A stretch of 64,000 nucleotides of DNA from a virus: the IMG/VR virus record IMGVR_UViG_3300035704_000001, positions 64,001 to 128,000 of that record; one strand, 5' to 3'. The position numbers were made by a program, and so were the translations under genes. The notes below the pieces were generated by a model. That model saw only the letters and a program-made list of their open reading frames with translations. It searched no databases and was not told where the DNA came from. The stretch's first letter is position 1, and each line of letters opens with the position of its first letter. Shown here one piece after another: positions 9,288 through 50,881 of the stretch.

Positions 9288-10334
9288 GTGGGATACGCAA
9301 CCGGCGAAGACCGGTCTGACTTCCAGGCTGGGGGCCAGCCCTGGGGGGCCAACGACTTCGGCTTTACCAAGTTCACCGAGAGTGACAACTGGAAGGCCAG
9401 GACCGCGAAGGGCAACTGGTCGGCCATGCGGGCCGCGGGCATCCACCGCGGTGCCTATCACTTCTTCCACCCGGCTGTCTCGGCCGTGGCGCAGGCCAAC
9501 TTCTTCATCAGCGCGGTGCGGGCCGCCGGGGGCTGGGAGGACGGCGACATGTTCGCCGGGGACTTCGAGATCGCCCTGGGCGAAGGCGGCGCGGAAGTGG
9601 CCGGGGAGCCCGCGCTGCGCCGGATGCACGCTCCGCTGCTGGCGCTGTCGGCACACCGGATGGGCACCACGGTGGGCTCGGGCGCGCTGCAGTTCCTCAA
9701 CCGGGTGGCCGAGCTGGTCGGCCCGGCCTGCCCGGTGGTGGCGTACACCTACAGCGCGTTCCGGTCGAACGTGGCCAGCTGTGTCAGGTACCCGCTGTGG
9801 ATCGCCTCGTACTCGATGTCCCCGCCGGCCTCGGTCAGCCCGTGGCGCGACTGGACGATGTGGCAGAACTCTGACCACGGAGGCCAGGGCGGCGGGGACA
9901 CCAACCGGTTCAACGGCAACGCGGGGGCGCTGCAGAGCTGGCTGGACTCGCTTGCTCCCGCCCCCGCCAGCTGGACGGAGACCACCTTGAGCGAGCTGCC
10001 CACCCTGACCCAGGGCATGAAGGACCAGCCCGGGGCCAATACGGCCGTCGGCAAGATGCAGGCCCTGGTCGCGCACGTCGGCCGGAAGAACAACCTGGCC
10101 AAGTCGAAGGTGCTCGCCGACGACGGCGTTTTCGGCGCGACCACCAAGGCCGCGGTCACCGAGATCCAGGCGTTCTTCAAGATCACCGGCGGCAACGGCG
10201 AGTGCGGAAAGCGCACCTGGGAAGCCCTGCTGCTGGGTCACGTCTCGTTATGTCGGTGCCTCGTGCGTAGATACAGGTGTGGCAACTTATGGGCTTCTCT
10301 CCGACATTCACCTGACCCGGCGGGCTCCGGTTAA
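9288..10334 (+). CDS. endolysin: GH25 muramidase plus peptidoglycan-binding domain (domain ends at about 10247)
   Basis: DRSDFQ, KFTE, GAYHFF, DFE, LWIASY, WQNS...DTN; C-terminal DGVFGATTKAAV...Q...G.CGKRTW. Confidence 0.88.
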   Translation: MGYATGEDRSDFQAGGQPWGANDFGFTKFTESDNWKARTAKGNWSAMRAAGIHRGAYHFFHPAVSAVAQANFFISAVRAAGGWEDGDMFAGDFEIALGEGGAEVAGEPALRRMHAPLLALSAHRMGTTVGSGALQFLNRVAELVGPACPVVAYTYSAFRSNVASCVRYPLWIASYSMSPPASVSPWRDWTMWQNSDHGGQGGGDTNRFNGNAGALQSWLDSLAPAPASWTETTLSELPTLTQGMKDQPGANTAVGKMQALVAHVGRKNNLAKSKVLADDGVFGATTKAAVTEIQAFFKITGGNGECGKRTWEALLLGHVSLCRCLVRRYRCGNLWASLRHSPDPAGSG

Positions 10335-11277
10335 CTGCACCGAGTCCTACCTGGAGGACCTGTTCGACCTCCTCCGGCAGGCGTTCGCGGTGTTCGCGCG
10401 GCGCAAGGTGGCCGCCGCTCTCGTCGCCGGCGACCTGTTCCACCACAAGGCGCCGACCCGGACCGATCACGAGATCGTCGGCACGCTGGCCGAGATGTTC
10501 CAGTCCCTGGACTACCCGGTGTGGATCGTCCCGGGCAATCACGACATGCAGAACGACCGGATCGAGTCGGTGGGCAAGACCCAGCCGCTGGGGGTGCTCT
10601 ACAAGGACCGCAGCGCGTACTGCCTGGACGGCTGGATGGGCGGGGAGCACCCGGTGTTCGGGGTGCCGTGGCAGCAGCACTGGTCCGAGGAGCGGATCGC
10701 GGAGTGCCTGCGCCCCTGGCGCGAGTACACGCCGTTCGAGGCGACGAGCGAGAGCTACCTGATCGTCACCCACGCGCCGATCTACCCGCCGTCCTGTGAG
10801 CCCCGCTACGAGGGCGCGGAACTGACCCCAGCCGACTGGTGGGCCGAAGCCGCGGGAGGCAGCCCCGGCGCGCACAGCGTGTTCTATGGCCATATCCACG
10901 AGCGCCACGGAACCTGGGAGCGCGGCGGGGTCACCTTCTGCAACAACGGGGCCCTGTCGCGCGGCTCGATCGGCGAGGACAACCTGACCCGGGCCATCGG
11001 GGCGACGCTGTGGACCCCGGGCGAGGGCTTCGAGTTCGTGCCGCTGGACGCCAAGCCGGCCGCGGAGGTGTTCCGGCTGCGCGAGCACGGGCAGGCGGTC
11101 ACCTCGCAGATGAGCCTGGACACGTTCATGGCCGGGCTCGGGTCTACCGTGCTGCCGCGGCTGGAGCCGGAGTCGGTGCTGGCCCGGTTCCGCGAGGACG
11201 ATGCCGGCGCGGACGAGATCGCCCTGGCCGAGGAGCTGCTGGACTGGGCCGGCGCCGAGGGGAAGGTAAAGCGATGA
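10279..11277 (+). CDS. SbcD/Mre11-like metallophosphoesterase nuclease
   Basis: SDIH, AGDLFH, PGNHD, THA, GHIH, NGAL.R motifs. Confidence 0.9.
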   Translation: MATYGLLSDIHLTRRAPVNCTESYLEDLFDLLRQAFAVFARRKVAAALVAGDLFHHKAPTRTDHEIVGTLAEMFQSLDYPVWIVPGNHDMQNDRIESVGKTQPLGVLYKDRSAYCLDGWMGGEHPVFGVPWQQHWSEERIAECLRPWREYTPFEATSESYLIVTHAPIYPPSCEPRYEGAELTPADWWAEAAGGSPGAHSVFYGHIHERHGTWERGGVTFCNNGALSRGSIGEDNLTRAIGATLWTPGEGFEFVPLDAKPAAEVFRLREHGQAVTSQMSLDTFMAGLGSTVLPRLEPESVLARFREDDAGADEIALAEELLDWAGAEGKVKR

Positions 11278-11438
11278 GCAGCCAGGATGGCTGGAGGGAC
11301 CGGTTCGCGCCGGACTACGACAAGTGCGCCTCACCGCGCTGCCAGGTGCCCGGGGGGATCATCGAGCCCGCCGACACGGTGCTCTACGACGGCGCCGGGC
11401 TGCAGGTGCACGAGGATTGCGAGGTGCCCGGTGCGTAG
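11274..11438 (+). CDS. small Cys/His protein
   Basis: ATGA overlap; CASPRC...HEDC. Confidence 0.6.
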   Translation: MSSQDGWRDRFAPDYDKCASPRCQVPGGIIEPADTVLYDGAGLQVHEDCEVPGA

Positions 11439-11661
11439 TCTCCGGCTGACCTATACCGTCGAGGCCTCGTACGACGATGAGCCGCCTGAGATCAAGGTGT
11501 TCCGGTTCCCGTCAAAACCCTGGTGGGGCTGCGTCGTCATGCTCTACCTCGGGCGCCTGGCCGCCATTGCCGGCCCGGCGAGACTGAAGGGCGGGACCAT
11601 CGTGACGCGCCTGGCGGATGGCTCGGTCGAGTACCTGGAGCGGAGGAAGCCCGATGCCTGA
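11431..11661 (+). CDS. hypothetical protein
   Basis: GTG overlapping the upstream stop; fills the gap between genes. Confidence 0.5.
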   Translation: MRSLRLTYTVEASYDDEPPEIKVFRFPSKPWWGCVVMLYLGRLAAIAGPARLKGGTIVTRLADGSVEYLERRKPDA

Positions 11662-12526
11662 CACCGGCTACAAGCCCATCCGGCTGTCCTGGTCCCGGCT
11701 GCGGGTGCACGACGAGTGCCCGGCCAAGGGCGACCTGATCTCGAAGCGGCAGAAGGGCGCGCTCACCGACACCCGCAACTTCCTGCACGGCAATGTCTGC
11801 GACCTCGCCATGCGGCGGTTCCTGAGCCTGGAGGCGCCCGCGGATGAGCTGGGCTGGATGGCCCGCCAGGTAGACGAACTCTTCGACGAGTGGATAGAGA
11901 TTGCGAAGAGTTCCGGGGACGGGATCATCAAGTGGCGCCACGCTGCCGACCAGGCCGAGGTGCGCGAATTCTGCCGGGAGGCGGTGACCCGGCTCGAAGA
12001 GCTGCTGGTCAGGTTCGTGCTGCCGTTCGACTGGTATCCGGCGTGGCGCTTCAACGTCCCGGTGAAGATCCATTACGGCCACGAGATCCGCGAGATTACG
12101 CTGACTGGCGAGGCCGACCTGCTGGTGTTCGACAAGCACGGCCGGATCTTCATCTGGGACCTCAAGGCGACCAAGGACGACAGCTACTGGCGCAAGACGC
12201 TGGCGCAGCTGGCGTTCTACGCGCTCGCGGTGAAGTGCGAGCGGGAGGAGGCCCTGCCGGAGGAGGAGAAGAAGCTGGGCCGGTGGCCGTACCGGGCCGG
12301 CCTGCTCCAGCCGATGTGCACCGAGCGGTTCCTGACGTTCGACGTCATGGCCGACGGCGGCCAGGCCATCCGCGAGATGACGAGCCGGATCGAGCGCGTG
12401 TCCGCGGACATCTGGGCAGGGCGCCTGGACCCTAAGCCGCAGGAGTGGTGCAACCGGTGCGAGGTGCGCCACGCCTGCCCGCTGTTCGCGCCGGGTTCCG
12501 GCCGCAAGGTGAAGATGGCGGCGTAG
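11654..12526 (+). CDS. PD-(D/E)xK exonuclease, RecB/Cas4-like
   Basis: LSWS...CP, G...D, GEADL...DLK, QLAFY, CNRCEVRHAC (four-Cys Fe-S pattern). Confidence 0.85.
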   Translation: MPDTGYKPIRLSWSRLRVHDECPAKGDLISKRQKGALTDTRNFLHGNVCDLAMRRFLSLEAPADELGWMARQVDELFDEWIEIAKSSGDGIIKWRHAADQAEVREFCREAVTRLEELLVRFVLPFDWYPAWRFNVPVKIHYGHEIREITLTGEADLLVFDKHGRIFIWDLKATKDDSYWRKTLAQLAFYALAVKCEREEALPEEEKKLGRWPYRAGLLQPMCTERFLTFDVMADGGQAIREMTSRIERVSADIWAGRLDPKPQEWCNRCEVRHACPLFAPGSGRKVKMAA

Positions 12527-16558: not shown

Positions 16559-19500
16559 ATGACCAGGACTGCTGAAGCCGCCGGCCGGTGGCTGGACGAG
16601 AACCTGTACCGGTTCGACGGCCCCGGCCAGTTCCTCGGGGACGAGCCCGGCTCCCAGCTGGCCTCGCTGGGCATGGACCGGGCCGCGCTGTGGGACTACG
16701 GCAAGGTCCGGGTGTGCCTGGCCGCGTCCTGGGACTACGCGCAGGCCTCGGGCAACATCGCCATCCCGGCGGTGCTCAATGCCATCCGGGTGGCCGGGGA
16801 GTACGTGGCCGACCGGTTCTACCTGCCGTCCACCTCGCGCGACTGGTCGATGCTGGTCAAGGGCGGGCTCGGCTGCTTCGGCATCGAGACCCGGCACCCG
16901 CTGCGGGACTTCGACGTGGTGGCCACGAGCATCAGCTACACCGTGCTGTTCCAGAACTTCAGCGCCTACCTGACGGCCTCCGGCATCCCGCTGCGCCGCG
17001 CCGACCGGGAGAAGAACCCGGAGGCCTGGCCCCTGGTGATGGCCGGCGGGCAGGCCTACTGCGCGCCCGAGTTCATGTCCGCCGTCTTCGACTGCATCTG
17101 GCTGGGGGAGGCGGAGGACGAGGAAGGCGAGTCCGGCGGCATCGGCGAGGTGTGCGGGGTCATCGCCGCGTGCAAGGCCGATGGCTGCTGGCAGCGTGAC
17201 CGGCTCGGCTGCTACCGCATGCTGGCCCGCCGGTTCAGCCACCTGTACTTCCCGCAGTTCACGGCGTTCACCTACCGCTACGAGGACCGCGGGCTGGAGC
17301 ATCCCACCAAGATGGTGGCCGGGCACTGGCCGGTGCTCGACGGCATGCGCTACCCGCACCAGCGCCGGTACATCAAGAACCTGGACAAGATGTGCCCGCT
17401 GTGCTCGGCCCCGCTGCTGTATACCGACCCGGGGATGGGCGCCGGGGACTCCGAGATCGCCCGCGGCTGCACCTGCTGGTGCCCGTTCTGCCGGCTGTCC
17501 TGGGTGACCAAGCCGTACCGGCAGCACGACGTGGACTACTCGATCCGCCAGATGCAGCTGTGGCGGCAGGCCATGGGCTCGGTGGACATCTCGCTGGTGG
17601 CCCCGGACCCGCCGGTACACACCCAGATGAAAGAGCTGCTGGCTCGCATCCTGGGCGAGGTCACCGACGAGGTGGACGCGTCGTCCATGCGGATCGACGA
17701 CTACCTGGCCGACCACGACTTCGCGCTGCTGATGACGATCGCCGGCGCCGACTCGCTCACGCTCGGGCTGGAGGGCAACTCCCAGCGGATGCGCGACCTG
17801 GCCGGCAAGGGCACCTCCGACGACGACGTGTGCGAGGTGGTCACCCGGGCCATCCGGGCCGGCATCAGGCGGATCAAGCTCTACATGATCACGAACTGGC
17901 CGGGGGAGACGGCCGCTGACGTCATGCGGATCGTTGAGCTGGGCCGCCGGCTGGCTGCCATCCGCGCGGACTTCGACGCCCAGAAGGTCCGCATCCAGTT
18001 CAGCTGGACCCCGCTGCTCATCGAGGCGCAGACCCCGCTGCAGTGGTTCGAGGTCACCGCGCCGGACTACCGGCTGCAGCAGGCCCTGGACGAGCTGCGC
18101 GACCTCGGCATCTCGATGAAGATCGGCTCGAAGGCCAACCCCGACAAGCTGGCGTTCTTCCAGGCCTGCCAGCGGGCCAGCCGCGACGCCGGGGAGGCGC
18201 TGGCGGATGTCGTCGAGGGGATCGGCGAGCCGTCCTGGGGCGGGTTCCCCAAGGACATGCAGGACCGGCTCGACGTCGCGCTTATGTCGCACGGCTTCCT
18301 CAACGGGCTGGCCGACCTGTTCGGCGAGCGGTTCCGCAGCGACCTGCTGGGCTGGGAGCACATCGACACGGGCGTGTCCACGGACCTGATGTGGCAGGTC
18401 TACGCGGACATGGTGGCGTTCCTCAAGGGCACCGACCCGGAGACCTACGACGATGCCGAGCGCGGCGCGGCCAGCGGCAACGAGTGGGTCGGCCGGTGCG
18501 ATCAGACCTGCCAGGGCGCGGCGTGCGGGGCGTGCGACCACGATGACCTCAAGCTGCGCAAGGACTACATCACCGCCACCGACCGGGACCTGGAGGCCGA
18601 GCCGGTCGACCCGGTCGACCACACCACGGTGTCCCGCCGTCTCCGCCTGCGGCTGTACCGGCCGCAGGAGTACCGGTTCGCCTCGTCCGAGTTCCTGCGC
18701 TTCCACATCCGCGCGGCCGCGTTCCGGGCGTGCGACGCCACCGGGTTCCCGGCCATCGCCAAGCGCACCGTGGGGCTGGCCTCCGACGCCACCGCCTACC
18801 GGGACCGGTCCTCGGGGGTGGAGTACGCCGAGTTCGGCGTCACCCGGCCCGTGACGGCCGGGGAGGAGCTGGAGCGGTTCCTGGACGCTCTCGGGTCCGG
18901 GCTGGCGCCCTGGCTGGAGCTGGAGGCCTGCCAGGTGCTGCCCGCGGCCGCGCGCATGCCGTCCCGGCCGGTCGGGCTGTGGGAGGTCGAGACCGACCTG
19001 ACCGAGGACGAGCTGGCCGCGCTGCTGCGCGGGTGGGACAAGGCCGGGACGGTCCGGTTCCTGCTGAAGTCGGACAGCTTCTACGCCGGCGAGCAAGCCG
19101 TGTGGATCAACGCCAAGGACCACGTGACCGACCTGTGGGCGACCCGCGCCGGGCACCGGGTAGTGGTCCGGATGCTGCTGGGCGGCAAGCTGGGCCCGTA
19201 CCAGGTCATGCAGGCGCTGCTGGGCAAGAACTCGTGGATGCCGCTGGCCAGGCACCCGGCGGTCCGGCTCGGGTTCTTCCGGCCTGGCCAGGAGGCGGGC
19301 CCGCTGCCCTGCACCGGCTGCGGGCTGCCGGTGCCCGAGGGCCTGCTCGGCGAGATCCCCGACTGCGACTGGTGCCCGCGCTGCCGTGACGAGGAGGCGG
19401 GAGAGATTATCGCCGGTCTGGCCCGCGTGGGCGTATTACAGGGCACGGAAGTTAACACCTGGGGAGAAGCCTGTGGACGCCATTCCGATGTTCGAGGACG

Positions 19501-19603
19501 TGGACGAGCTGAGAGCGGCCGCGGAGGCCGGGACCGTCGATGTGCACGTAGCGGCAGCAGCGGCCATCTTCGGCCTGGAATCGGCCCAGGTCGGCCCGGC
19601 TGA
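16559..19603 (+). CDS. B12-binding-type radical SAM protein (TIGR03960-like) fused to a radical SAM-linked DUF2344/TIGR03936-like domain; coding-like signal ends at about 19435
   Basis: LRDFDVV, AGG...PE...D...GEAE, EIARGCTCWCPFC, LEGNSQRMR, IKLYM...PGET, WEHIDTG; C-terminal RLRL...RFASS...SSGVEYAEF. Confidence 0.85.
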   Translation: MTRTAEAAGRWLDENLYRFDGPGQFLGDEPGSQLASLGMDRAALWDYGKVRVCLAASWDYAQASGNIAIPAVLNAIRVAGEYVADRFYLPSTSRDWSMLVKGGLGCFGIETRHPLRDFDVVATSISYTVLFQNFSAYLTASGIPLRRADREKNPEAWPLVMAGGQAYCAPEFMSAVFDCIWLGEAEDEEGESGGIGEVCGVIAACKADGCWQRDRLGCYRMLARRFSHLYFPQFTAFTYRYEDRGLEHPTKMVAGHWPVLDGMRYPHQRRYIKNLDKMCPLCSAPLLYTDPGMGAGDSEIARGCTCWCPFCRLSWVTKPYRQHDVDYSIRQMQLWRQAMGSVDISLVAPDPPVHTQMKELLARILGEVTDEVDASSMRIDDYLADHDFALLMTIAGADSLTLGLEGNSQRMRDLAGKGTSDDDVCEVVTRAIRAGIRRIKLYMITNWPGETAADVMRIVELGRRLAAIRADFDAQKVRIQFSWTPLLIEAQTPLQWFEVTAPDYRLQQALDELRDLGISMKIGSKANPDKLAFFQACQRASRDAGEALADVVEGIGEPSWGGFPKDMQDRLDVALMSHGFLNGLADLFGERFRSDLLGWEHIDTGVSTDLMWQVYADMVAFLKGTDPETYDDAERGAASGNEWVGRCDQTCQGAACGACDHDDLKLRKDYITATDRDLEAEPVDPVDHTTVSRRLRLRLYRPQEYRFASSEFLRFHIRAAAFRACDATGFPAIAKRTVGLASDATAYRDRSSGVEYAEFGVTRPVTAGEELERFLDALGSGLAPWLELEACQVLPAAARMPSRPVGLWEVETDLTEDELAALLRGWDKAGTVRFLLKSDSFYAGEQAVWINAKDHVTDLWATRAGHRVVVRMLLGGKLGPYQVMQALLGKNSWMPLARHPAVRLGFFRPGQEAGPLPCTGCGLPVPEGLLGEIPDCDWCPRCRDEEAGEIIAGLARVGVLQGTEVNTWGEACGRHSDVRGRGRAESGRGGRDRRCARSGSSGHLRPGIGPGRPG

Positions 19604-19739
19604 ACGCCGGTGGGGCAAATGGCTGAACATGGCGGCCCTGCTCGGGCTGAGCGAGGCGGGGCTGGCCGACCTGTGCCAGGCTCCGCGGGAGAAGGTCCGC
19701 GAGATGCTGGACCGGTACCGCGTCATGGTCTTGATGTGA
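19473..19739 (+). CDS. stand-alone PolA fingers (helix O) homolog, 88 aa
   Basis: DVHVAAAAAIFG...V...RRWGKWLN...G.S..GLA...Y; RBS GGGGAG. Confidence 0.7.
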   Translation: MDAIPMFEDVDELRAAAEAGTVDVHVAAAAAIFGLESAQVGPAERRWGKWLNMAALLGLSEAGLADLCQAPREKVREMLDRYRVMVLM

Positions 19740-23561: not shown

Positions 23562-23906
23562 GTGACTATCGTCCGGATCTCCTGCGGGTGCCTGTTCTAC
23601 GGCGACGGGGCCCCGGACTGGCGGGACAGCCAGCAGCTGCGCTGGTGCCGGCAGCACGAGCTGGCGGACAGGCTCCGCGGGATGCGCGAGCTGGCTGCCC
23701 GCGGCATCAGCGTGGGCGAGTGGGCCCGGCACCCGACGATTACCCCGGCATGGCCGACTGGACCAAGTTCGACAACCTCTTCACCTGCCCTGCCGCTGTT
23801 ACCGACCAGGACCTGCGGACGGCGTACGAGGAGCTGTATACCGCGGCCAAGCGCGAGTGCGAGGGCCTGGACCTGTCCTCGGCCCAGATCATGCGCACGA
23901 GCGTGA
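23562..23906 (+). CDS. hypothetical protein (3' end uncertain; in-frame TTA at 23799)
   Basis: GTG 11 nt after the class A motif; overlaps the next gene by 157 nt. Confidence 0.45.
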   Translation: MTIVRISCGCLFYGDGAPDWRDSQQLRWCRQHELADRLRGMRELAARGISVGEWARHPTITPAWPTGPSSTTSSPALPLLPTRTCGRRTRSCIPRPSASARAWTCPRPRSCARA

Positions 23907-28851: not shown

Positions 28852-28924
28852 GGGAGCGTGGCACAGCGGCAACTGCAGTGGCCTCCAAAACCACCAACCG
28901 AGGGTTCGAGTCCTTCCGCTCCTG
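28852..28924 (+). tRNA. tRNA-Trp(CCA)
   Basis: Cloverleaf; anticodon loop CTCCAAA. Confidence 0.9.
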
Positions 28925-28970
28925 CGACCATCGTCAACGCGAGAGCCGCGACGGTGCCTGTCACCTGGCA

Positions 28971-28993
28971 GTACTTGAGAACTCCACAGCGTG
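28971..28993 (+). promoter_or_regulatory. rRNA-leader boxA-like element
   Basis: GTACTTGAGAACTCCACAGCGTG resembles the actinobacterial rrn leader TTGAGAACTCAA.AG.GTG. Confidence 0.65.
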
Positions 28994-29081
28994 AGCATCG
29001 AGCAGGCTAGCCAGCCTGCTCAGTTAGACGTGCTGGGCTGGCCGCAACCGGGACTCCCCGGGGAAGCCAGCCCAGCGCACT

Positions 29082-29154
29082 GGGGCTATAGCGCAGCTGG
29101 TAGCGCACCTCCATGGCATGGAGGGGGTCAGGAGTTCGAATCTCCTTAGCTCCA
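29082..29154 (+). tRNA. tRNA-Ala(GGC)
   Basis: Cloverleaf; G3.U70. Confidence 0.95.
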
Positions 29155-29256
29155 CTGGTGCTGCTGACATGTGTAGAGGGCCGTGACGGGTACCTCAGCG
29201 GCGGTTATGCCGAAGGCCGGGTGTCTCCGGCGGCAAATAGGCGGCGGCACCAGCCT

Positions 29257-29329: not shown

Positions 29330-29332
29330 CTA

Positions 29333-29457: not shown

Positions 29458-29463
29458 GTTAAA

Positions 29464-30437: not shown

Positions 30438-30443
30438 CAGCAC

Positions 30444-31157: not shown

Positions 31158-31206
31158 GGCCCTACCCTGGCCGGCTTCCGCGCCGCGCGCAATTGCGCGA
31201 GGTCAC

Positions 31207-31279
31207 GCCGGGGTAGCTCAAATGGCAGAGCAGGCGTCTCGTAAACGTCAGGTTGAGGGTTCGATCCCGTCCTCCGGCT
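31207..31279 (+). tRNA. tRNA-Thr(CGT)
   Basis: Cloverleaf. Confidence 0.92.
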
Positions 31280-31287
31280 CGATACAC

Positions 31288-31373
31288 GTCCGCGTGGCGG
31301 AATAGGCATACGCGCAGCCTTGAGGTGGCTGTGCTCCTAGCGGAGCGTGAGAGTTCAAGTCTCTCCGCGGACA
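31288..31373 (+). tRNA. tRNA-Leu(GAG)
   Basis: Class II cloverleaf. Confidence 0.95.
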
Positions 31374-31378
31374 CACGG

Positions 31379-31451
31379 TGGGGGTTAGCTCAATAGGCCG
31401 AGCAGCGGTCCTTGGTACCGCGGGATCGGGGTTCGAGTCCCTGGCCCCCAG
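31379..31451 (+). tRNA. tRNA-Gln(TTG), C33
   Basis: Loop CCTTGGT. Confidence 0.85.
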
Positions 31452-31697
31452 CAGAATCAATCGCGGGCTGCGTGTCAGGAATCGTCAGGCCGGCGACAGA
31501 TAGCTAGTAGGACCTGCCCTTCGGACCGGCGTCCGCGTGTCTTCGGTAAGGACGCGCCGCCCGGATCGGCACCGGGGAAGGGCTCAAGAGGGGGCGGCGC
31601 GTTCCGGCCTTCTGCCTCGTGCGGACGAGACTGGTCTCTCCCCGTGCAGGTTGTCTCTGGTGGTGGTTAGGCCAGCACCGCCGGACAGGGGCGCAAT

Positions 31698-31771
31698 GCG
31701 GACGTGGCTCAGTCGGTTACGGCGCCACGTTGCCAACGTGGAGATCGCGAGTTCGAATCTCGCCGTCCGCA
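31698..31771 (+). tRNA. tRNA-Gly(GCC)
   Basis: Cloverleaf. Confidence 0.93.
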
Positions 31772-31773
31772 CT

Positions 31774-31827
31774 CAGGGATGAAACAGCAGCGGGCTGTAA
31801 AGCCGGTTCGACTCCGGTGATCCCTGT
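31774..31827 (+). ncRNA. anticodon-less tRNA-like RNA
   Basis: Acceptor CAGGGAT/ATCCCTG, D-like hairpin, T arm GCCGG-TTCGACT-CCGGT. Confidence 0.6.
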
Positions 31828-31831
31828 TCGA

Positions 31832-31914
31832 GCGCTCGTGGCGAAACGGCATACGCGCACGGTTCAGGTCCGTGTGCCCGCGAGGGCGTAAGGGTTCAAA
31901 TCCCTTCGAGCGCA
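31832..31914 (+). tRNA. tRNA-Leu(CAG)
   Basis: Class II cloverleaf. Confidence 0.95.
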
Positions 31915-31975
31915 CGACATCCTGGCCGCTTCGACGGCCAGGACGCGGGCCCTGGCTCTGGCCAGGGCCCAGCAC

Positions 31976-32062
31976 GGAGGGCTGGCTCAGCGGCTACAGC
32001 GGCGCCCTGCTAAGGCGCAGGGGCTCCGGCCCTCACGGGTTCGAGTCCCGTGCCCTCCTCCA
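31976..32062 (+). tRNA. tRNA-Ser(GCT)
   Basis: Class II cloverleaf; encoded CCA. Confidence 0.92.
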
Positions 32063-32063
32063 C

Positions 32064-32123
32064 GGGCTGTATGACACCGGCCGTGCCTGCCGGCAAAGGC
32101 GGGTTCGCCTCCCGTACGGTCCA
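32064..32123 (+). ncRNA. truncated tRNA-like RNA
   Basis: Acceptor GGGCTGT/ACGGTCC and T arm GCGGG-TTCGCCT-CCCGT; no proper anticodon arm. Confidence 0.5.
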
Positions 32124-32127
32124 CCCT

Positions 32128-32214
32128 GGAGGGTTCGCCTAGTGGCCTATGGCGCACGCCTGGAAAGCGTGTTGGGTGGCGACACCCTCGCGGGTTCGAC
32201 TCCCGCACCCTCCT
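32128..32214 (+). tRNA. tRNA-Ser(GGA)
   Basis: Class II cloverleaf. Confidence 0.95.
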
Positions 32215-32289
32215 CTGGTCTCGTTCGTGACTCCGTATTAGGGGTGTGTTACCGTCACGATACGGTCCGTCACGGAAAGGGAGTTCATC

Positions 32290-32415
32290 ATGCGTCGCAG
32301 GTTTATCGCCGGGATCATTCTCCTGGGTGCACTGCTCGGAGGAGCAGCCGCTACCGGAGGGGCTGCTTCCGCAGCCGCTCATTCAGCTCCCGGAACGGTC
32401 TATTACCACGGCTGA
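32290..32415 (+). CDS. 41-aa secreted pre-peptide MRRRFIAGIILLGALLGGAAATGGAASAAAHSAPGTVYYHG, not in the ORF track
   Basis: RBS GAAAGGGAG, Sec-type signal peptide, own promoter motif at 32234, downstream hairpin. Confidence 0.75.
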   Translation: MRRRFIAGIILLGALLGGAAATGGAASAAAHSAPGTVYYHG

Positions 32416-32426
32416 GCTGAATTGAC

Positions 32427-32487
32427 CAGGCAGACCCGGGTGTCTTCGAGACGGGGTACCCCGTCAGGCGCACACCGGGTCTGCCTG
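32427..32487 (+). terminator. branched hairpin after the peptide gene
   Basis: CAGGCAGACCCGG/CCGGGTCTGCCTG 13-bp stem enclosing GACGGGG-ta-CCCCGTC. Confidence 0.5.
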
Positions 32488-32494
32488 CTTTCCT

Positions 32495-32580
32495 GGGGGG
32501 TTCGCCTAGTGGCCTATGGCGCCGGTCCCGAAAACCGAAGGGGGAAACCCCCGTGGGTTCGAATCCCACACCCCCCTCCA
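32495..32580 (+). tRNA. tRNA-Ser(CGA), C33
   Basis: Loop CCCGAAA; encoded CCA. Confidence 0.88.
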
Positions 32581-32581
32581 A

Positions 32582-32659
32582 GGGCAGGCAGCATCGACAG
32601 GTTCGAGCGCTCGTCTGATAAACGAGAGGGTGGAGGTTCAAATCCTCCCCTGCCCACCA
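32582..32659 (+). tRNA. tRNA-Ile(GAT)
   Basis: Loop CTGATAA; irregular D arm; encoded CCA. Confidence 0.85.
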
Positions 32660-32660
32660 C

Positions 32661-32735
32661 GGCGGTATAGCTCAGCTGGTCAGAGCGCCCCACTCATAAT
32701 GGGAGAGGCCGCTGGTTCGAGTCCAGCTACCGCCA
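32661..32735 (+). tRNA. tRNA-Met(CAT), elongator-type (Ile2 not excluded)
   Basis: Cloverleaf; G1-C72. Confidence 0.9.
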
Positions 32736-32739
32736 CTCC

Positions 32740-32814
32740 GGGCTGTTAACTCAGTGGCAGAGTCTTCGACTTTTAATCGAGTGGTCCGGGGTTCGATCCC
32801 CCGACAGCCCACCA
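32740..32814 (+). tRNA. tRNA-Lys(TTT)
   Basis: Cloverleaf; encoded CCA. Confidence 0.95.
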
Positions 32815-32815
32815 G

Positions 32816-32889
32816 GCGCCCGTAGCTCAGCCGGACAGAGCTGCTGCCTTCTAAGCAGCGGGCCGCGGGTTCGAATCCTGCCGGGCGCG
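32816..32889 (+). tRNA. tRNA-Arg(TCT)
   Basis: Cloverleaf. Confidence 0.95.
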
Positions 32890-32974
32890 CTAGCTGAGTG
32901 GTAATAATGGATGTGCCGGGCCTGGATGTGTGGGTTCCCTCCGGGGCTTCTCGCTTCCCGGGTCCGGTCTGTAT

Positions 32975-33049
32975 CGTCCCGTGGAGCAGCCAGGAGTGTT
33001 CGCCGCTCTCTCAAAGCGGAGGTCGAGGGTTCAAATCCCTTCGGGACGA
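32975..33049 (+). tRNA. tRNA-Glu(CTC)
   Basis: Cloverleaf. Confidence 0.92.
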
Positions 33050-33113
33050 CATCACGGGCTAGTTCCCGGCCAATGTGCCGGGGAGCCGAGGCCGGCGGTC
33101 CCACCGGCCATCA

Positions 33114-33187
33114 GGCCCCATGGAGCTAAAAGAGCAGGCCACCGCCCTTTCAAGGCGGGGGTGCGGGTTCGAGTCCCGCTGGGGCTG
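33114..33187 (+). tRNA. tRNA-Glu(TTC)
   Basis: Good acceptor, anticodon and T arms; degenerate D arm. Confidence 0.8.
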
Positions 33188-33188
33188 C

Positions 33189-33264
33189 TGCGGAGGGGGT
33201 TCGGTCACCCGACTAGGCCTCATAAGCCTGGGGACGCAGGTTCAAATCCTTGCCTCCGCTACCA
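33189..33264 (+). tRNA. tRNA-Met(CAT), initiator-like
   Basis: 1:72 mismatch (T/T); loop CTCATAA; encoded CCA. Confidence 0.78.
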
Positions 33265-33265
33265 A

Positions 33266-33337
33266 TCCGGTATCCGTTAATCGGTAAACGAGCTGACCGT
33301 TAATCAGCCCCTCTTGGTTCGAGTCCAAGTACCGGAG
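33266..33337 (+). tRNA. tRNA-Asn(GTT), C33
   Basis: Loop CCGTTAA. Confidence 0.88.
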
Positions 33338-33351
33338 CGCAGGTAAATCAG

Positions 33352-33426
33352 GAGCCAGTGGAGCAGCTTGGAGTGCTCGTCTCCCCGTCAAGGAGAAGAC
33401 CGCGGGTTCAAATCCCGTCTGGCCCG
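33352..33426 (+). tRNA. tRNA-Asp(GTC), C33
   Basis: Loop CCGTCAA. Confidence 0.88.
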
Positions 33427-33427
33427 C

Positions 33428-33619
33428 TCAGAACAGCCCGTGGCCGCCGGCCTTGGCCCGGCGCATCCGCTCGCGGCTCTCGTAGCTGCCGAGCTGGTTG
33501 AAGCCCCAGACCCGGCCCATGCGCATCCCGATGGTCAGCGCGATGACGGCAATGATGATCGCGCCGACCGGGCCGAACAGGGCCCAGGCGACGATGAGGA
33601 GGAGAACTCCGAGCAGCAC
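33428..33619 (-). CDS. small membrane protein, antisense in the tRNA array
   Basis: Two hydrophobic segments; start uncertain. Confidence 0.6.
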   Translation of the reverse strand: MLLGVLLLIVAWALFGPVGAIIIAVIALTIGMRMGRVWGFNQLGSYESRERMRRAKAGGHGLF

Positions 33620-33655
33620 GTCATTGACGGTACATAACTGATAGCAGTTTGACCA

Positions 33656-33727
33656 GGGCGGGTGGCGCAGCGGGAGCGCGCTTCCCCGACAAGGAAGAGG
33701 CCGCCAGTTCAATCCTGGCCCCGCCCA
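33656..33727 (+). tRNA. tRNA-Val(GAC), C33
   Basis: Loop CCGACAA. Confidence 0.9.
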
Positions 33728-33773
33728 CGCTTGACACCAGCAGTAGTCAGTAGGTTACTGTTGGCGAGTTCAA

Positions 33774-33846
33774 GCGCTCCTAGCTCAGCGGATAGAGCGG
33801 CCGACTACGGATCGGCAGGTGCGGGGTTCGAGTCCCTGGGAGCGCG
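33774..33846 (+). tRNA. tRNA-Arg(ACG)
   Basis: Cloverleaf. Confidence 0.95.
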
Positions 33847-33910
33847 CGAGACCCCGGTCCTGCAACGGCGCAAGCCGGCCGGCAGATCCGGCGCCGGGGT
33901 CCGTCTTTCA

Positions 33911-33940
33911 GGGCGCATAGCTCAGCAGGAGAGCGGCTGG
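33911..33940 (+). pseudogene. orphan 5' half of a tRNA (Val-like)
   Basis: GGGCGCA-TA-GCTC-AGCAGGA-GAGC with no 3' half; immediately precedes the endonuclease. Confidence 0.7.
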
Positions 33941-33971
33941 TACAGTGCCAACAGGTCTGTATGCTGGGATA

Positions 33972-34382
33972 GTGAACGGTAATACGAATAGCAACAGCGT
34001 CGGTGCTCGAACCGAGGGCATGATCATGGCGGCGTTGCTTCGTGCAGGTAAGACTGTCCTTACCCCGTTCGGGGTCCAGCGCTATGACCTGGTATTCGAG
34101 GATGAATCAGGATTCCACCGGGTTCAGTGCAAGACAGGCCGTCTAAAGGACGGGGCTATAGTGTTCGAGACCTGCAGCCGCCACAGTAGAACACTTCAGC
34201 GAACCTCATACCACGGGCACGCGGACTTCTTCGGCGTGTACTACCCGGGAGGGGATGCTTGTTACTTGATACCGATCGAATTGGTGGGTCAGACGCAGGG
34301 CAGTATCCGGATCGTGCAGACGAAGAACAGCCAGGCCAAAGGCGTCTTGAACGCCGAGCAATTTGTAATAATGTCCAGTTAG
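33972..34382 (+). mobile_element. free-standing PD-(D/E)xK homing endonuclease (group I intron-associated PDDEXK_5 / I-Ssp6803I-like)
   Basis: G...E...L...PFG..RYDLV...RVQCKTG...Y...ADFFGVY...YLIP; lower GC; TATGCT -10 precedes the GTG; stop lies inside tRNA-Val(CAC). Confidence 0.85.
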
Positions 34383-34447
34383 CTCAGCGGGAGAGCGCTG
34401 CCCCCACACGGCAGGCGTCGGGAGTTCGACCCTCTCACTGGACACCA
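34373..34447 (+). tRNA. tRNA-Val(CAC), C33
   Basis: Loop CCCACAC; encoded CCA. Confidence 0.88.
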
Positions 34448-34448
34448 T

Positions 34449-34521
34449 GGTGGTTGTAGCTCAAGGTAGAGCCCGGGGTTGTGAGCCCCGGAGGTGCGGG
34501 TCGTACCCGTCAATCACCCCA
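34449..34521 (+). tRNA. tRNA-His(GTG)
   Basis: G-1:C73; shortened T loop; encoded CCA. Confidence 0.85.
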
Positions 34522-34522
34522 A

Positions 34523-34603
34523 GGCGGAGTAACCCTAGAGGCAAGGGAGCGGCCTGTAAAGCCGTGGTCTTCGATACGGCAGGTTCGATTCCTGCGTCCG
34601 CCA
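34523..34603 (+). tRNA. tRNA-Tyr(GTA)
   Basis: Class II cloverleaf. Confidence 0.88.
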
Positions 34604-34643
34604 CTGCACAGCGATCTACCGGAGTTCTTCCGGGGATCTACCA

Positions 34644-34715
34644 GCGCCCGTAGCTCAGGGGATAGAGCTGCGGCCTCCGGAGCCGTGAGCGGGAGTTCGA
34701 ATCTCTCCGGGCGCG
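34644..34715 (+). tRNA. tRNA-Arg(CCG)
   Basis: Cloverleaf. Confidence 0.95.
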
Positions 34716-34726
34716 CGTACGATAAT

Positions 34727-34801
34727 GGCGGTGTGGCCGAGTGGCCCAGGCGTGCGCCTGCAAAGCGCACTACACGAGTTCGATTCTCGTCTCCGCCTCC
34801 A
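34727..34801 (+). tRNA. tRNA-Cys(GCA)
   Basis: Cloverleaf; U73; encoded CCA. Confidence 0.92.
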
Positions 34802-34835
34802 ACCAAGAAGGGACTCCCCGAAGGGAGTCCCTTGA

Positions 34836-34908
34836 TGGCCCGTGGTCCAGCGGACACGGATAGCTGCCTCCTAAGCGGCGGACGCGGGTTCGAATCCCGC
34901 CGGGCCAG
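34836..34908 (+). tRNA. tRNA-Arg(CCT)
   Basis: Cloverleaf. Confidence 0.9.
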
Positions 34909-34933
34909 CCCAGGTGCTCACGCTGCGGCAGTA

Positions 34934-36502: not shown

Positions 36503-38140
36503 GTGACCACACCCGGAGGCGGGCAGGGCGTCCCGTACACCTCCAGCGTCCAGCCGCCGGGCGGCATGGGCGTGACGAGCCAGGGCTTCGGGCAGGAGGG
36601 CTATCTCCTGGCGCAGGACCAGGAGCTGCCCAAGCCGCCGCCGGAGGCGCTGGACTTCGCGGTCGGCGTCCCGTACTTCCTCCCGTTCAGCGTCCCGTAC
36701 CGGGACAGCTGGGAGGTGTTCCGCGATGACCCGATCTCGGTCCGCCAGCTGGTCACCATGCGCCGCCGCGATGGCCAGGCCCGGGCGCTGTACCGGCTGC
36801 TGACCAAGCCGCTGCTGGCCGCGATGGCCAACGCCGACGTGGTGCCGGCCGACGGCGTGGAAGGCGGGCTGGAGGAGGCCAGGTTCTGCAAGGAGCTGTT
36901 GTTCGCGCCCAAGCAGATGGGCGGGATGACCCACTCGTTCAGCCGGTTCCTCAAGCAGATGCTGCTGGCATTGTTCAATGGCTTCTCCGCGTGGGAAATG
37001 GTCTACCACGTCCCGACCAAGGGGCCGAATAAGGGCAAGATCACCCTGCGGAAGATGGACTGGCGCCCGGCCGAGACGCTGACATTCCTGCTGGACGGCC
37101 AGGGGGAATTCAACGGCTTCCGGCAAAGGACCTTCTTTCAGGGGAGGACCATTGATGTCAAGATCCCCCGGGAGACCGCGCTCTATTACGCGCACGAGGA
37201 GGCCGAGCGGCCTTTCTATGGCGTGTCCATGTTCGAGTCGGCCTTCTATCACTACGACAAGAAGGAGAAGCTGTACTACATTGCCCACCTGGCGGCGCAG
37301 CGGGCTGCCTGCGGCCTGCGGGTGGGCACCATGGTGCCGAACGCCCCGGCCGAGGACAAGAACAACTTCGTCAAGGCGCTGAGCCAGCTGGGCCTCGCCC
37401 AGTGGATCGCGCTGCCCACCGCGGACTGGACCGTCGAGACGCTGAACGAGTCGGCGAGCCGCTTCGACTTCCTGGGCCTGATTAACCATCACAATTCGCA
37501 GATGTCCAAGTCGGTGCTCGCGCAGTGGTTCGATGACTCTCAGGGCGGCGGCGGCGGCGACTCCACTCTCGTTGATTTCGGGAAGCAGGATGACGTCACG
37601 TTCTTCCTGATGCTGGAAGGCATCCTGGAGGAAATGGCCGAGATCATCAACACGCATGTCTTCCCGCGATTCGTGGACTGGAATTTCGGCAGCGAGAAGT
37701 ACCCCGAATTCAAGTGGGGGCCGCTCACCGAAGAGGCCAAGGCGGCTATCCAGGACACGTTCGACAAGCTGGCCGCCGCCGGGCAGCAGGCCAACGTCAC
37801 GCCGGAGTTCATGCTGGAGCTGGAGGAGCGGCTGGCGCAGGACTTCGGGTTCGCCATCGACTACGACAAGATCAAGGCCCAGCGGGAGAAGCAGCAGCGG
37901 CTCATGCAGCAGCAGATGGCCGCGCAGACCCAGGCGATGCAGCAGCAGCCGCAGCCCGGCGCCGCGGGAGCCGGCGCAGCCGCCGGGCAGCCGCCGGCGC
38001 CTCCGCCGCCCGCTCCCTTCCCGCCCGCCGGGTTCGGCCCGCCGGGCAGTGACGGCCCGCCCGCCAGGCCCGCCGGGGGTCCCGGGCTGGGCGGCGGCCG
38101 CGGAGCCGGCCCGCCCGGGCTGCAGGGGCGCGGATCGTGA
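36503..38140 (+). CDS. portal protein (DUF935 / Mu gp29-like)
   Basis: GFSAWEMVY, PFYG.SM, INHHNSQMSKSVL, VDWNF; position in the head module. Confidence 0.85.
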   Translation: MTTPGGGQGVPYTSSVQPPGGMGVTSQGFGQEGYLLAQDQELPKPPPEALDFAVGVPYFLPFSVPYRDSWEVFRDDPISVRQLVTMRRRDGQARALYRLLTKPLLAAMANADVVPADGVEGGLEEARFCKELLFAPKQMGGMTHSFSRFLKQMLLALFNGFSAWEMVYHVPTKGPNKGKITLRKMDWRPAETLTFLLDGQGEFNGFRQRTFFQGRTIDVKIPRETALYYAHEEAERPFYGVSMFESAFYHYDKKEKLYYIAHLAAQRAACGLRVGTMVPNAPAEDKNNFVKALSQLGLAQWIALPTADWTVETLNESASRFDFLGLINHHNSQMSKSVLAQWFDDSQGGGGGDSTLVDFGKQDDVTFFLMLEGILEEMAEIINTHVFPRFVDWNFGSEKYPEFKWGPLTEEAKAAIQDTFDKLAAAGQQANVTPEFMLELEERLAQDFGFAIDYDKIKAQREKQQRLMQQQMAAQTQAMQQQPQPGAAGAGAAAGQPPAPPPPAPFPPAGFGPPGSDGPPARPAGGPGLGGGRGAGPPGLQGRGS

Positions 38141-38892
38141 GCGCCGGGGATGACCTGATGCGGCTGGCCTCGGACCTGGTGGACGAGATCGCGGCCGCGC
38201 GGCTGCTCGCGCTGGCCCAGCAGGCCAGCGGGGGCGGGGGTAACGTGCAGGCAGCGGGTACCGGCTCTGCCCAGCCCGCCCCGGTCCCCCAGCCGATGCC
38301 CCGGCCGCGCCGGGGAGCCGGGGCGGTGCACCCGCAGCTGGGCTGGCACCTGGTCACGATGCCGGGCGACTCGATCTCCGGCCACGCCTACCGGCACCTG
38401 ACGCAGCCCCTCGGCCCGCCCCCGGGCCGATCAGCCGGGGGTGGAAGCGCACAGCAGGCCGGGCAGCCGGGACCTGACCCAGCGGGCACCGTACCCCAGC
38501 GTGCTGGAAAGCCTCGTCCGCGAGGCAAGTTACCGGCCCGGCTGGAAGCTGATCCTGTCCGAGATGGACCGCGGGCAGGGCAGCGGTGGCCTGACCCTGG
38601 ACATCATCACCAAGGGGCACGACAGCTATCACCCCGAGCTGGGCACGAATTACTGCGTGCATCACTACTTCCCGGTCCCGCCGGCGGCCTACAACGAGCG
38701 GTCCTGGACGCACTGGATCTTCGAGTGCCTGGTGAACGTCGAGAAGCACGAGGCTATGGAGTTCTTCCGCCTCGGCGGCAAGCCTGTCTACCCGCCCGCC
38801 CACGGGCCCGGCAACGATCCCTACCTGGTGCTCATCTACGGAGAAGATCTCGACCGGCGCACCCGGTTCACCGGCGAGATCAACCCGGGTGA
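38137..38892 (+). CDS. hypothetical protein (true 3' end probably near 38430-38532)
   Basis: GTGA coupling to portal; runs 452 nt into the next gene unless the TTA at 38530 terminates it. Confidence 0.45.
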   Translation: MSAGDDLMRLASDLVDEIAAARLLALAQQASGGGGNVQAAGTGSAQPAPVPQPMPRPRRGAGAVHPQLGWHLVTMPGDSISGHAYRHLTQPLGPPPGRSAGGGSAQQAGQPGPDPAGTVPQRAGKPRPRGKLPARLEADPVRDGPRAGQRWPDPGHHHQGARQLSPRAGHELLRASLLPGPAGGLQRAVLDALDLRVPGERREARGYGVLPPRRQACLPARPRARQRSLPGAHLRRRSRPAHPVHRRDQPG

Positions 38893-39061
38893 CTTAGCAT
38901 GGCCACGTCCGGGCTGGGCAGGCAGCTCGGGGCTGCGATCACCGCTCCGATGGGGGAGCTGGCCGAGTACCTGGCGCTCATCACCAAGGCGAACCCGCGT
39001 GGTTCAGCGGCTGCCCTGCTGGCACGGCCGGACGTGGCTGCCATGCTGCATGAAGCGCTGA
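38441..39061 (+). CDS. hypothetical protein (coding-like to 38893, then TTA)
   Basis: GTG 13 nt after the class B motif; HEAMEFF...PAHGPGNDPY. Confidence 0.75.
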   Translation: MEAHSRPGSRDLTQRAPYPSVLESLVREASYRPGWKLILSEMDRGQGSGGLTLDIITKGHDSYHPELGTNYCVHHYFPVPPAAYNERSWTHWIFECLVNVEKHEAMEFFRLGGKPVYPPAHGPGNDPYLVLIYGEDLDRRTRFTGEINPGDLAWPRPGWAGSSGLRSPLRWGSWPSTWRSSPRRTRVVQRLPCWHGRTWLPCCMKR

Positions 39062-39930: not shown

Positions 39931-40257
39931 GTGGACGCTGACCTGCCGGAGGCTCCGGCAGGGTCGAACACCCTGCGCTATTTCTCGGAGGAGCTGGCGG
40001 CTTACGCGCTGGCTGTCGTCTTGCTGTGGGAGTACTCCCGCAGCCACCCGCGCGAGGAGTTCGTGTTCGGCCCGCACAACCTCGCGGCGGCCAGGGCCGG
40101 CGGGCTGGTGCTGTCCGGGCCCGACCTGACGGGCCCGGCCCGGGTGCTGGCCGAGGTCGAGGGGCTGGCCCTGCACGAGCCCGGGACCGAGGAGGCGGCA
40201 GCAGCCCGATTATCCGGCCGTGGACGGCTGGGTGGTGCGGGAGTGCTTCGTCGATGA
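39931..40257 (+). CDS. hypothetical protein (coding-like to 40209, then TTA)
   Basis: Codon usage; position between genes. Confidence 0.6.
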   Translation: MDADLPEAPAGSNTLRYFSEELAAYALAVVLLWEYSRSHPREEFVFGPHNLAAARAGGLVLSGPDLTGPARVLAEVEGLALHEPGTEEAAAARLSGRGRLGGAGVLRR

Positions 40258-49699: not shown

Positions 49700-49923
49700 T
49701 GGCCAGCACCACGATCTACCACACCCAGCGTGGCTTCGGCCTGTGCCATGCCCCGAATTACTCCGAGGTCGGCGCCGGGCTGACCCACCCCGAGCACGGG
49801 CGGCTGGTGTCTTGCTGGGTGTGCGGGCACCTCGGGGTCATCCCCGAACAGGGCCATGAGCTGGAGTTCATGCCGCCGGGCACCGAGCGGGGCCCCGACG
49901 GAGGCTTCGTCCTGCGGACATAG
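49699..49923 (+). CDS. hypothetical protein
   Basis: TGATG coupling; CWVC. Confidence 0.6.
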   Translation: MASTTIYHTQRGFGLCHAPNYSEVGAGLTHPEHGRLVSCWVCGHLGVIPEQGHELEFMPPGTERGPDGGFVLRT

Positions 49924-49964
49924 TGAAGCGGGCAGCACCGGGGGGGAGGGTGCTGCCCGCTTCA
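49924..49964 (+). terminator. 16-bp hairpin
   Basis: TGAAGCGGGCAGCACC...GGTGCTGCCCGCTTCA. Confidence 0.6.
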
Positions 49965-50084
49965 TGATCCGGACCCATGCGCCAGGCTGGCAAGCCGCGG
50001 GACACGCGCCGGTGTTCGCGTCCTCACGTTACAGGGCCGGCCGCGTGGCGCGGCGGGCGAAACGCCGAGAACGATTAACCAGGC

Positions 50085-50624
50085 ATGGACGACGTGGGCA
50101 CCGGCGCGGTTAAGCTCCTGACTGCCTGCGACGACGTGACTGAGCTGCTGGGCCTGTTCTCGCTGGCCGATCCGGTCGCGCCCAACGCCGGCCGCCCCTG
50201 GATCTTCGCCGACACCATCTCGCTGGCCGGGGCGCCCGGCGTGCTGACCCGGGTCGAGGGCACCCAGCAGGCTGCCCTGGTGCTGTCCGACTTCGGCGGC
50301 TGGGAGGCCCCGGCGATGCTGGCCTCGGCCCGGTTCCGGCGGCTGCGGGTGGACGTCTGGGTCGACCCGGTCCGCGACGGCAACAGCAACGTCGCCGAGA
50401 CGTCAGCGCTGACGACCAACCGCGGGCTCGCGGTGTTCGCCGCGGCGCACAGCCACCTGCAGCGCCGGGACAGCGACGTGCAGATCTGGGGCGACCTGGT
50501 GACCTTCGGCTGCCAGCTACTCGCCGACATCACCTTCTCCCCCGTGCCGGACGGCGACTGGCTGCAGCGCGGCACCGCCTATTACGGGGTGTACTGCGCC
50601 GGCTGGACCGACGCTGCCGAATAG
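50085..50624 (+). CDS. tail terminator/completion protein
   Basis: LRVDVW; position; class B motif upstream. Confidence 0.65.
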   Translation: MDDVGTGAVKLLTACDDVTELLGLFSLADPVAPNAGRPWIFADTISLAGAPGVLTRVEGTQQAALVLSDFGGWEAPAMLASARFRRLRVDVWVDPVRDGNSNVAETSALTTNRGLAVFAAAHSHLQRRDSDVQIWGDLVTFGCQLLADITFSPVPDGDWLQRGTAYYGVYCAGWTDAAE

Positions 50625-50686
50625 ATCCCCGGTTCCGCGTAAGCCAGGCCCCCCGGCCTGGTCTGTCCGGTCGAGGAGGTCCCCCT

Positions 50687-50881
50687 ATGCACTACTGCGT
50701 CGGCTGCGGCAGGTTCCGGGCTCTCGTCGCGGTCATCTTGCTGTGTTCCGAGTGCTACGGCGACTGGCTTCGGCTGACCCCGGTCCGATTGCGCGACAGG
50801 GAAATGATGCCGAGGGAGGCCCATGTCCGAGCGCCCGCTCAAGGTCCTGGTCAAGAGCCCGTTTTCGCAGTTCAGCGGTTA
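50687..50881 (+). CDS. small zinc-finger protein; no standard stop until 52087, first in-frame TTA at 50879
   Basis: RBS GAGGAGG; CVGC...CSEC. Confidence 0.45.

Follow-up and report, generated by a model that had tools for sequence, protein, structure and literature searches.

TTA at the stop positions of genes in a clade of large high-GC soil phages, and the case for UUA as an additional translation terminator

The leucine codon UUA is a stop in the mitochondria of Thraustochytrium (NCBI table 23), and in Streptomyces it is the rarest codon and is read only by the bldA tRNA. The unassigned codons of Micrococcus luteus (AGA and AUA), familiar from the codon capture idea of Osawa and Jukes, have been described as unused. 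Reassignments from sense to stop are reported from mitochondria only (PMC6821328, PMC12574857); UCA and UCG, for example, are stops in green-algal mitochondria (PMC6821328). Antonov et al. (2023) describe an upstream open reading frame (ORF) of adpA with UUA 5-6 nucleotides (nt) before the main start, support UUA-triggered bypassing in the terminase of the Streptomyces phage phiHau3, and report that 1.9% of annotated Streptomyces phage genes contain UUA; UUA replacing stop codons is not described (PMC10732093). The present analysis concerns TTA codons at gene ends in a stretch of 64,000 nt (the window), bases 64001-128000 of the 150,822-bp, 71% GC virus record IMGVR_UViG_3300035704_000001, with nearly all window genes on the plus strand. 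It is likely, judging from sequence comparisons, that UUA is not a leucine codon in the clade of large, high-GC soil phages to which this genome belongs, and that it serves there to end translation in addition to the standard stops. TTA stands at stop positions, with no conservation of the open tails beyond it, and relatives show the same pattern; we infer that translation of the TTA-ended genes functionally finishes at UUA. Clade-wide statements below refer to four complete genomes, namely this one (G000) and its relatives G001, G005 and G006 (68-69% GC, 143-162 kb, G006 being 143.5 kb); loci from other relatives are given by number.

The original prediction listed eight in-frame TTAs at gene junctions, six at long overlaps and two at shorter ones, and proposed UUA as a possible stop or undecodable stall-and-rescue signal, a reading that the orthologue alignments and unconserved tails support. 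The endolysin gene (9288..10250, plus strand; GH25 and PG_binding_1) is one example. Its Pfam domains finish at residue 314, codon 321 is TTA (10248-10250), and the frame then stays open to a TAA at 10334. The codon aligned to this TTA in L017, the closest relative locus (retrieved by its 90% amino acid identity in the radical SAM protein), is TAA, and the next ~25 intergenic bases are nearly identical. In L018 and L019 the endolysin ends with TGA at most three codons from the TTA position. The gene that follows (10279..11277, plus strand), which starts with a GTG 28 nt past the TTA, encodes a metallophosphoesterase (Pfam Metallophos from residue 5) and is a separate gene in all three of these loci.

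The radical SAM gene (16559..19438, plus strand; 959 codons) ends at TTA 19436-19438, with its frame open to a TGA at 19603. Among 72 homologues, 27 end at the residue preceding the TTA, while in approximately 29 a leucine comes next and is followed by an unrelated tail of 5 to 524 residues. For comparison at the DNA level 54 loci were fetched. In the 17-18 distinct loci that continue, the codon after the conserved C-terminus is always TTA, never CTG or CTC; those that do not continue have TAA, TGA or TAG at the aligned codon or a few codons away. The open tails past TTA in these loci run for 14-526 codons and are unconserved, the longest (L060) extending 526 codons into the clamp loader gene, and even the frame of the tail relative to the next gene varies, being in frame in L018 and out of frame in the window genome. 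A maximum-likelihood tree of 33 distinct C-terminal regions (17 with TTA, 16 with a standard stop) has seven switches between TTA and a standard stop, at least four of them forced by well-supported branches, and its outgroups all have standard stops.

Behind the radical SAM gene lies a PolA-like gene (19473..19739, plus strand; 88 amino acids), which has a GGAG-type ribosome-binding site (RBS) and starts at a GTG 34 nt past the TTA. The RBS and the GTG are conserved in relatives, many of which keep this as a separate small gene; the match of the encoded protein is limited to positions 176-245 of the DNA polymerase A profile. In L018 the gene caller fused the radical SAM protein with the next gene into a product of 1063 amino acids. 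The junction (19430-19475) is conserved in loci L017-L067 as GCGTATTACAGG, then ~15-25 nt, then CACACCTGTGGAGGAACCTGTG, which holds the RBS and the GTG. As GTATTA has three occurrences in the whole genome, it was ruled out as a common promoter motif.

Two further genes follow the same rule. A 151-codon ORF (38441..38896, plus strand) reaches TTA 38894-38896 just 2 nt before the ATG at 38899, and its frame is otherwise open to 39061; homologues in L001, L002, L003, L091, L092 and G005 have a standard stop 0-2 codons from the TTA. The alignment of homologues proposed with the original prediction thus comes out positive for the endolysin, the radical SAM protein and this ORF, and the tails past TTA, whose conservation would have told against it, are unconserved in sequence, length and frame, any likeness among them being limited to bases that belong to the next gene as well. 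The second gene, ORF 39931 (39931..40212, plus strand), has its TTA at 40210-40212, 7 nt before a GTG at 40220. That TTA is conserved in L091 and L092, and the distance from it to the next standard stop is 15 codons here, 194 in L091 and 100 in L092. This was one of the two shorter overlaps also said to fit, and it stands. The other, TTA 50075, does not: as a TTA-ended gene its ORF (49856..50113) was rejected, since it reads like out-of-frame junk and looks spurious.

In two small ORFs the TTA falls inside the next gene. The ORF after the epimerase gene (23562..23801, plus strand) has as its first in-frame terminator candidate TTA 23799-23801, which lies 52 nt inside the next gene (start 23750); its homologue in L018 has TTA at the aligned place. 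The overlapped gene supplies this TTA through a rare GTT valine codon, and L019 and G005, which do not have the overlapping upstream ORF, have GTG and GTA at that codon. Similarly, a small CxxC...CxxC ORF with a strong RBS (50687..50881, plus strand), otherwise open to 52087, has TTA 50879-50881 at a point 59 nt inside the next gene (start 50823). Here a rare GGT glycine codon of the overlapped gene forms the TTA, and G005, again without the small ORF, has GGG. In both, the rare T-ending codon that makes the TTA is present only where an upstream ORF needs an end. A third overlapping ORF, after the portal gene (38137..38532, plus strand), has TTA 38530-38532 and meets a standard stop first at 38892; its coding signal ends near 38410-38440 in both the frame plot and the hidden Markov model described below. 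Within the six main cases, this ORF and ORF 50687 constitute weaker evidence. Altogether, at least six window genes probably end at TTA: the endolysin, the radical SAM protein, ORF 38441, ORF 39931 and, with less certainty, the small ORFs 23562 and 50687. The long "overlaps" would then be untranslated open frame.

The window as a whole shows the same relationship between TTA and the ends of coding signal. All eight listed TTAs are in frame with the ORFs named in the original prediction, whose next starts and overlap lengths (e.g. 452 nt and 1265 nt) are also correct. In a frame plot of GC content at third codon positions, the coding signal of the upstream ORF stops at the junction while the frame is still open. 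One gene finder, a periodic Markov hidden Markov model (HMM) built for the analysis, penalises TTA, so that segment ends at TTA are partly circular; for this reason a second, TTA-blind model was built on a strong/weak (S/W) alphabet, in which TTA is indistinguishable from other codons made entirely of A and T. Both place the in-frame TTAs at the ends of coding segments or just past them. The 92 plus-strand TTAs of the window divide into 45 in noncoding or unsure sequence, 44 out of frame in plus-strand genes, one antisense to a minus-strand segment, and two in frame, and both of the latter are at the very end of a coding segment. Standard stops meanwhile end genes normally, with short tails (TGA 106, TAG 39, TAA 18), and a test for stop-to-sense recoding found no standard stop in frame inside conserved genes.

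Across the four genomes, the TTA-blind model gives in-frame TTA three times in apparent gene bodies and 21 times in the end zone, whereas the six remaining sense codons made entirely of A and T together occur 1045 times in bodies and 164 times in end zones (Fisher p 2e-15). Two of the three apparent internal TTAs are antisense artefacts, and the third is the next gene in the same frame after a promoter, which leaves no real internal in-frame TTA in ~141,000 body codons; nor was a TTA found conserved at a leucine column, in keeping with the earlier statement that conserved domains hold none in frame. Nine of the 21 terminal TTAs are part of TTATG, compared with a background of 4.4% of all TTAs (p 1e-7), and in these the ATG of the next gene overlaps the terminal A just as in TGATG or TAATG. 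Once three tail-assembly-chaperone frameshift sites are set aside, there are 13 same-strand overlaps of at least 90 nt; in 11 of them an in-frame TTA stands where the coding signal ends or close to that point (binomial p about 1e-10 to 1e-13). TTA is exchanged for a standard stop within 0-3 codons in orthologues of nine gene families, four in this genome (three of them in the window: endolysin, radical SAM and ORF 38441) and five in relatives. The three other complete genomes show the gene-end pattern at other genes, often with the TTATG start overlap. G006 has six TTA-ended genes, in two of which a standard stop comes immediately after the TTA (TTATGA, TTATAG). As to the frameshift sites, the one in the window is an overlap of 134 nt without TTA (58214..58897) before the tape measure gene (7.8 kb, from 59468), with a stopless frame change near 58764 (58214-59304); G005 and G006 have a like arrangement.

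Several observations weigh against reading UUA as a terminator. The absence of TTA from gene bodies was rejected as evidence, because codon bias alone (usage of the other leucine codons) predicts just 2.35 internal TTAs in 141,000 codons; the caveat in the original prediction that such absence is expected at this GC content was well founded. A test of "TTA near end" versus "long tail" gave no discrimination, as TGT, ACA and CCA behave alike, and rare codons are generally enriched near the ends of long-tailed ORFs. Some tail TTAs lie within promoter-like TTGACA...TAGACT contexts. Some overlaps of 50-90 nt have no TTA, and ORFs 23562, 38137 and 50687 keep overlaps of 52-92 nt even with a TTA end. 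ORF 38137 is the weakest case: its homologue in G005 stops normally just before the next gene, and the TTA lies ~30 codons beyond that end. In L031 and L035 part of GCGTATTACAGG is out of frame, with a TAA six bases on, so the radical SAM junction sequence may be kept partly as a nucleotide motif. Finally, some read-through would have to occur in any host with a bldA-type tRNA.

The tRNA complement of the phages supplies no reader of UUA. The window holds an array of 36 tRNA genes (28852..34910, plus strand; ARAGORN, Rfam) whose leucine anticodons are CAA, GAG and CAG; the anticodon UAA is not found among the 36 by ARAGORN, as the original prediction stated, nor is it found in G001 (40 tRNAs) or G005 (37 tRNAs). 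G006 has no tRNA genes and shows the TTA pattern nonetheless. Other rare codons are read by the phage tRNA sets (AGA and AAA, with AUA in G001 and G005). Because the phage tRNAs include no UUA reader and the tRNA-less G006 shows the pattern, its cause is probably in the host. Within the array, between tRNA-Ala and tRNA-Pro, a 133-nt element (29331-29463) folds like a circularly permuted tRNA: it begins with the T arm and 3' half, continues through an insert bearing two hairpins and closes with the D arm, and UUAA lies in the loop that its free ends make (minimum free energy -68.8 kcal/mol, z = -3.2). A blastn search did not find this element in relatives.

Outside the window, the genome encodes a stand-alone GGQ release-factor domain protein of 253 amino acids (genome 16885-17646, L071:2885-3646). 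It matches PF00472 (56 bits) and aligns to domain 3 of RF1 without the codon-reading domains, a domain make-up that would suit a rescue role. The protein is missing from G001, G003, G005 and G008, all with the same TTA pattern; for this reason it was rejected as a general cause, which adds to the points that count against termination at UUA, and it may at most be a helper. A DpdA homologue nearby (genome 18750-19649, L071:4750-5649, also outside the window; PF23859, E 5e-77) suggests 7-deazaguanine modification of the DNA. Upstream of it, genome 15430-16916 is ~1.5 kb without coding signal.

The public runs that contain this phage genome are soil metagenomes, and no RNA run is among those listed. 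Searches of GenBank phages with the window (megablast and tblastn) found no close relative; the nearest cultured relative, by portal protein at 50% identity, is Microbacterium phage Magritte, in whose first 50 kb there is no in-frame TTA and no TTA-ended gene. Two scans of reference prokaryote genomes, one with the radical SAM profile and one with a TraB-like protein, returned no match, and the host was not found. The TraB-like protein (687 amino acids, FtsK-like; genome 142938-145001, L093:2938-5001, outside the window) has as its nearest clusters plasmid transfer protein TraB from Actinomycetota; this and the Microbacterium phage make an actinobacterial host probable.

A mechanism consistent with these observations would begin with loss of TAA or TGA from a gene, the functional product then ending at an in-frame TTA. 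A single base change turns TTA into TAA or into TGA, and the phages switch freely among the three states. The infected cell would have no effective tRNA-Leu(UAA), the phage providing none and that of the host being absent or scarce, and a ribosome at UUA would therefore meet no competing tRNA. The finished chain might be released by a release factor that reads UUA as a near-cognate or reassigned codon or, by an alternative route, by a codon-independent GGQ rescue factor. The frequent TTATG junctions suggest that after release the ribosome re-initiates on the next gene, in the manner known for TGATG and TAATG. The interchange of TTA with TAA and TGA, together with these couplings, fits release of an intact product better than tagging and degradation by transfer-messenger RNA (tmRNA). 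Release could come equally from a factor that recognises UUA, from slow near-cognate action at a codon that no tRNA decodes, or from codon-independent rescue.

A stronger version of the same idea, which we put forward tentatively and would not bet on, is that an uncultured high-GC actinobacterial host lineage and its phages share a new bacterial genetic code, with UUA as a genuine fourth stop. In this genome the GGQ protein, as a stand-alone peptidyl-tRNA hydrolase, and possibly the permuted tRNA-like RNA as a codon reader, may then help release. Such a code would be missed, because gene callers run on to the next standard stop.

The rival explanation that survives best, though it seems to us unlikely, makes UUA a conditional pause or leaky stop of the bldA type, a regulatory sensor of the state of the host and not a terminator. 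When the UUA tRNA is scarce the ribosome would stall at the gene end, with initiation of the next gene blocked or coupled, and when the tRNA is present it would read through. Precedents are the adpA upstream ORF, whose UUA lies 5-6 nt ahead of the main start, and the proposal of a UUA sensor in phiHau3 (PMC10732093); in several cases here 0-7 nt separate the TTA from the start that follows (TTATG, TTAGCATG), and the TraB-like protein points to an actinomycete host. However, the TTAs of the endolysin and radical SAM genes are 28-34 nt from the next start, and the targets are unrelated genes. Repeated interchange of TTA and stops at the same site argues for equivalence, not for a special switch, and read-through would give up to 526 residues of junk or accidental fusions. 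Regulation of this type also calls for internal UUA read as leucine, and TTA is found only at stop-equivalent positions.

It is very improbable that TTA is an ordinary leucine codon, with long C-terminal tails made and tolerated, and that AT-rich junction, promoter or RBS motifs place it where it is. The promoter-like contexts of some tail TTAs and the general enrichment of rare codons at the ends of long-tailed ORFs, both noted above, speak for this view. Motif placement does not account for a TTA that holds the exact aligned stop position in several families, for the choice of TTA every time from six leucine codons, or for tails that are unconserved and change frame; the other all-A/T codons have no end bias (p 2e-15), and GTATTA, at three copies in the genome, is not a common promoter. 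The ortholog alignments largely refute this view.

Equally hard to credit is frameshifting or bypassing triggered by UUA that would join the two ORFs of a junction into one protein, the proposal made for the phiHau3 terminase. Hungry codons do promote shifts, UUA bypassing is experimentally supported in a Streptomyces phage (PMC10732093), and the radical SAM gap is flanked by a GTA take-off codon and by a GTG after a sequence resembling a Shine-Dalgarno element. The flanking ORFs, however, are separate genes with their own stops, RBSs and starts in many relatives. The needed shift differs by case (+1 and -1), and the partners are functionally unrelated, as with endolysin and phosphoesterase. 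Bypassing should leave one conserved protein that is contiguous in relatives, and none is seen.

Contigs from an independent soil run (X4) are identical over 10170-10434, 19004-19503 and 23338-23898, and two variant strains have changes near 19436, with none at 19436 among the changes listed; since the independent contigs carry the same TTAs, these are not assembly errors. An artefact of sequencing, assembly or base modification that turned TAA or TGA into TTA is refuted for practical purposes, for although a phage encoding DpdA may carry 7-deazaguanine in its DNA, the same TTAs recur in that run and in dozens of assemblies from different studies, and no artefact could select in-frame gene ends.

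At TTA sites the public gene calls for this clade contain errors: fused ORFs, missed small genes and false long overlaps. Examples come from public protein sets P0007, P0022 and P0005 and from loci L018, L060, L091 and L092; a "DNA polymerase III gamma/tau" of 1449 amino acids is really a radical SAM protein plus a clamp loader. Tools for code inference that are restricted to amino-acid meanings are blind to termination at UUA. If UUA does terminate translation here, genetic code variation would be extended in a new direction in the bacterial world, and the old idea of the "unassigned codon" would gain a living, testable example. The new element would be that a whole clade of bacterial phages uses UUA to end genes, and UUA would be the first sense-codon terminator seen outside organelles.

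In comparison with known systems, the pattern resembles the sense-to-stop codes of organelles in that UUA is absent from conserved sense positions and sits at gene ends where relatives have stops. Those codes belong to small organelle genomes, whereas this one would belong to a clade of phages of 125-160 kb with probably actinobacterial hosts; and, unlike in the organelle codes, TAA, TAG and TGA are still normal here, UUA being used by ~2-5% of genes. With bldA, adpA and phiHau3 the clade would share a special role of UUA in translation among high-GC actinomycetes and their phages and, as in adpA, UUA stands a few nucleotides before the next start. In those systems, however, UUA lies inside the gene as a sense or recoding codon and a standard stop follows shortly, whereas here it replaces ordinary gene stops, alternates with TAA and TGA, and is followed by a long, meaningless open frame. 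As with the unassigned codons of Micrococcus luteus, GC pressure would have removed a codon and no tRNA would read it, but here UUA would have been taken into use as a gene terminator. Phage stop-codon recoding, in which TAG or TGA becomes an amino acid, likewise leaves the genes of a phage lineage mis-called under the standard code; the case described here would be its opposite, in that a sense codon ends genes and the three standard stops still stop.

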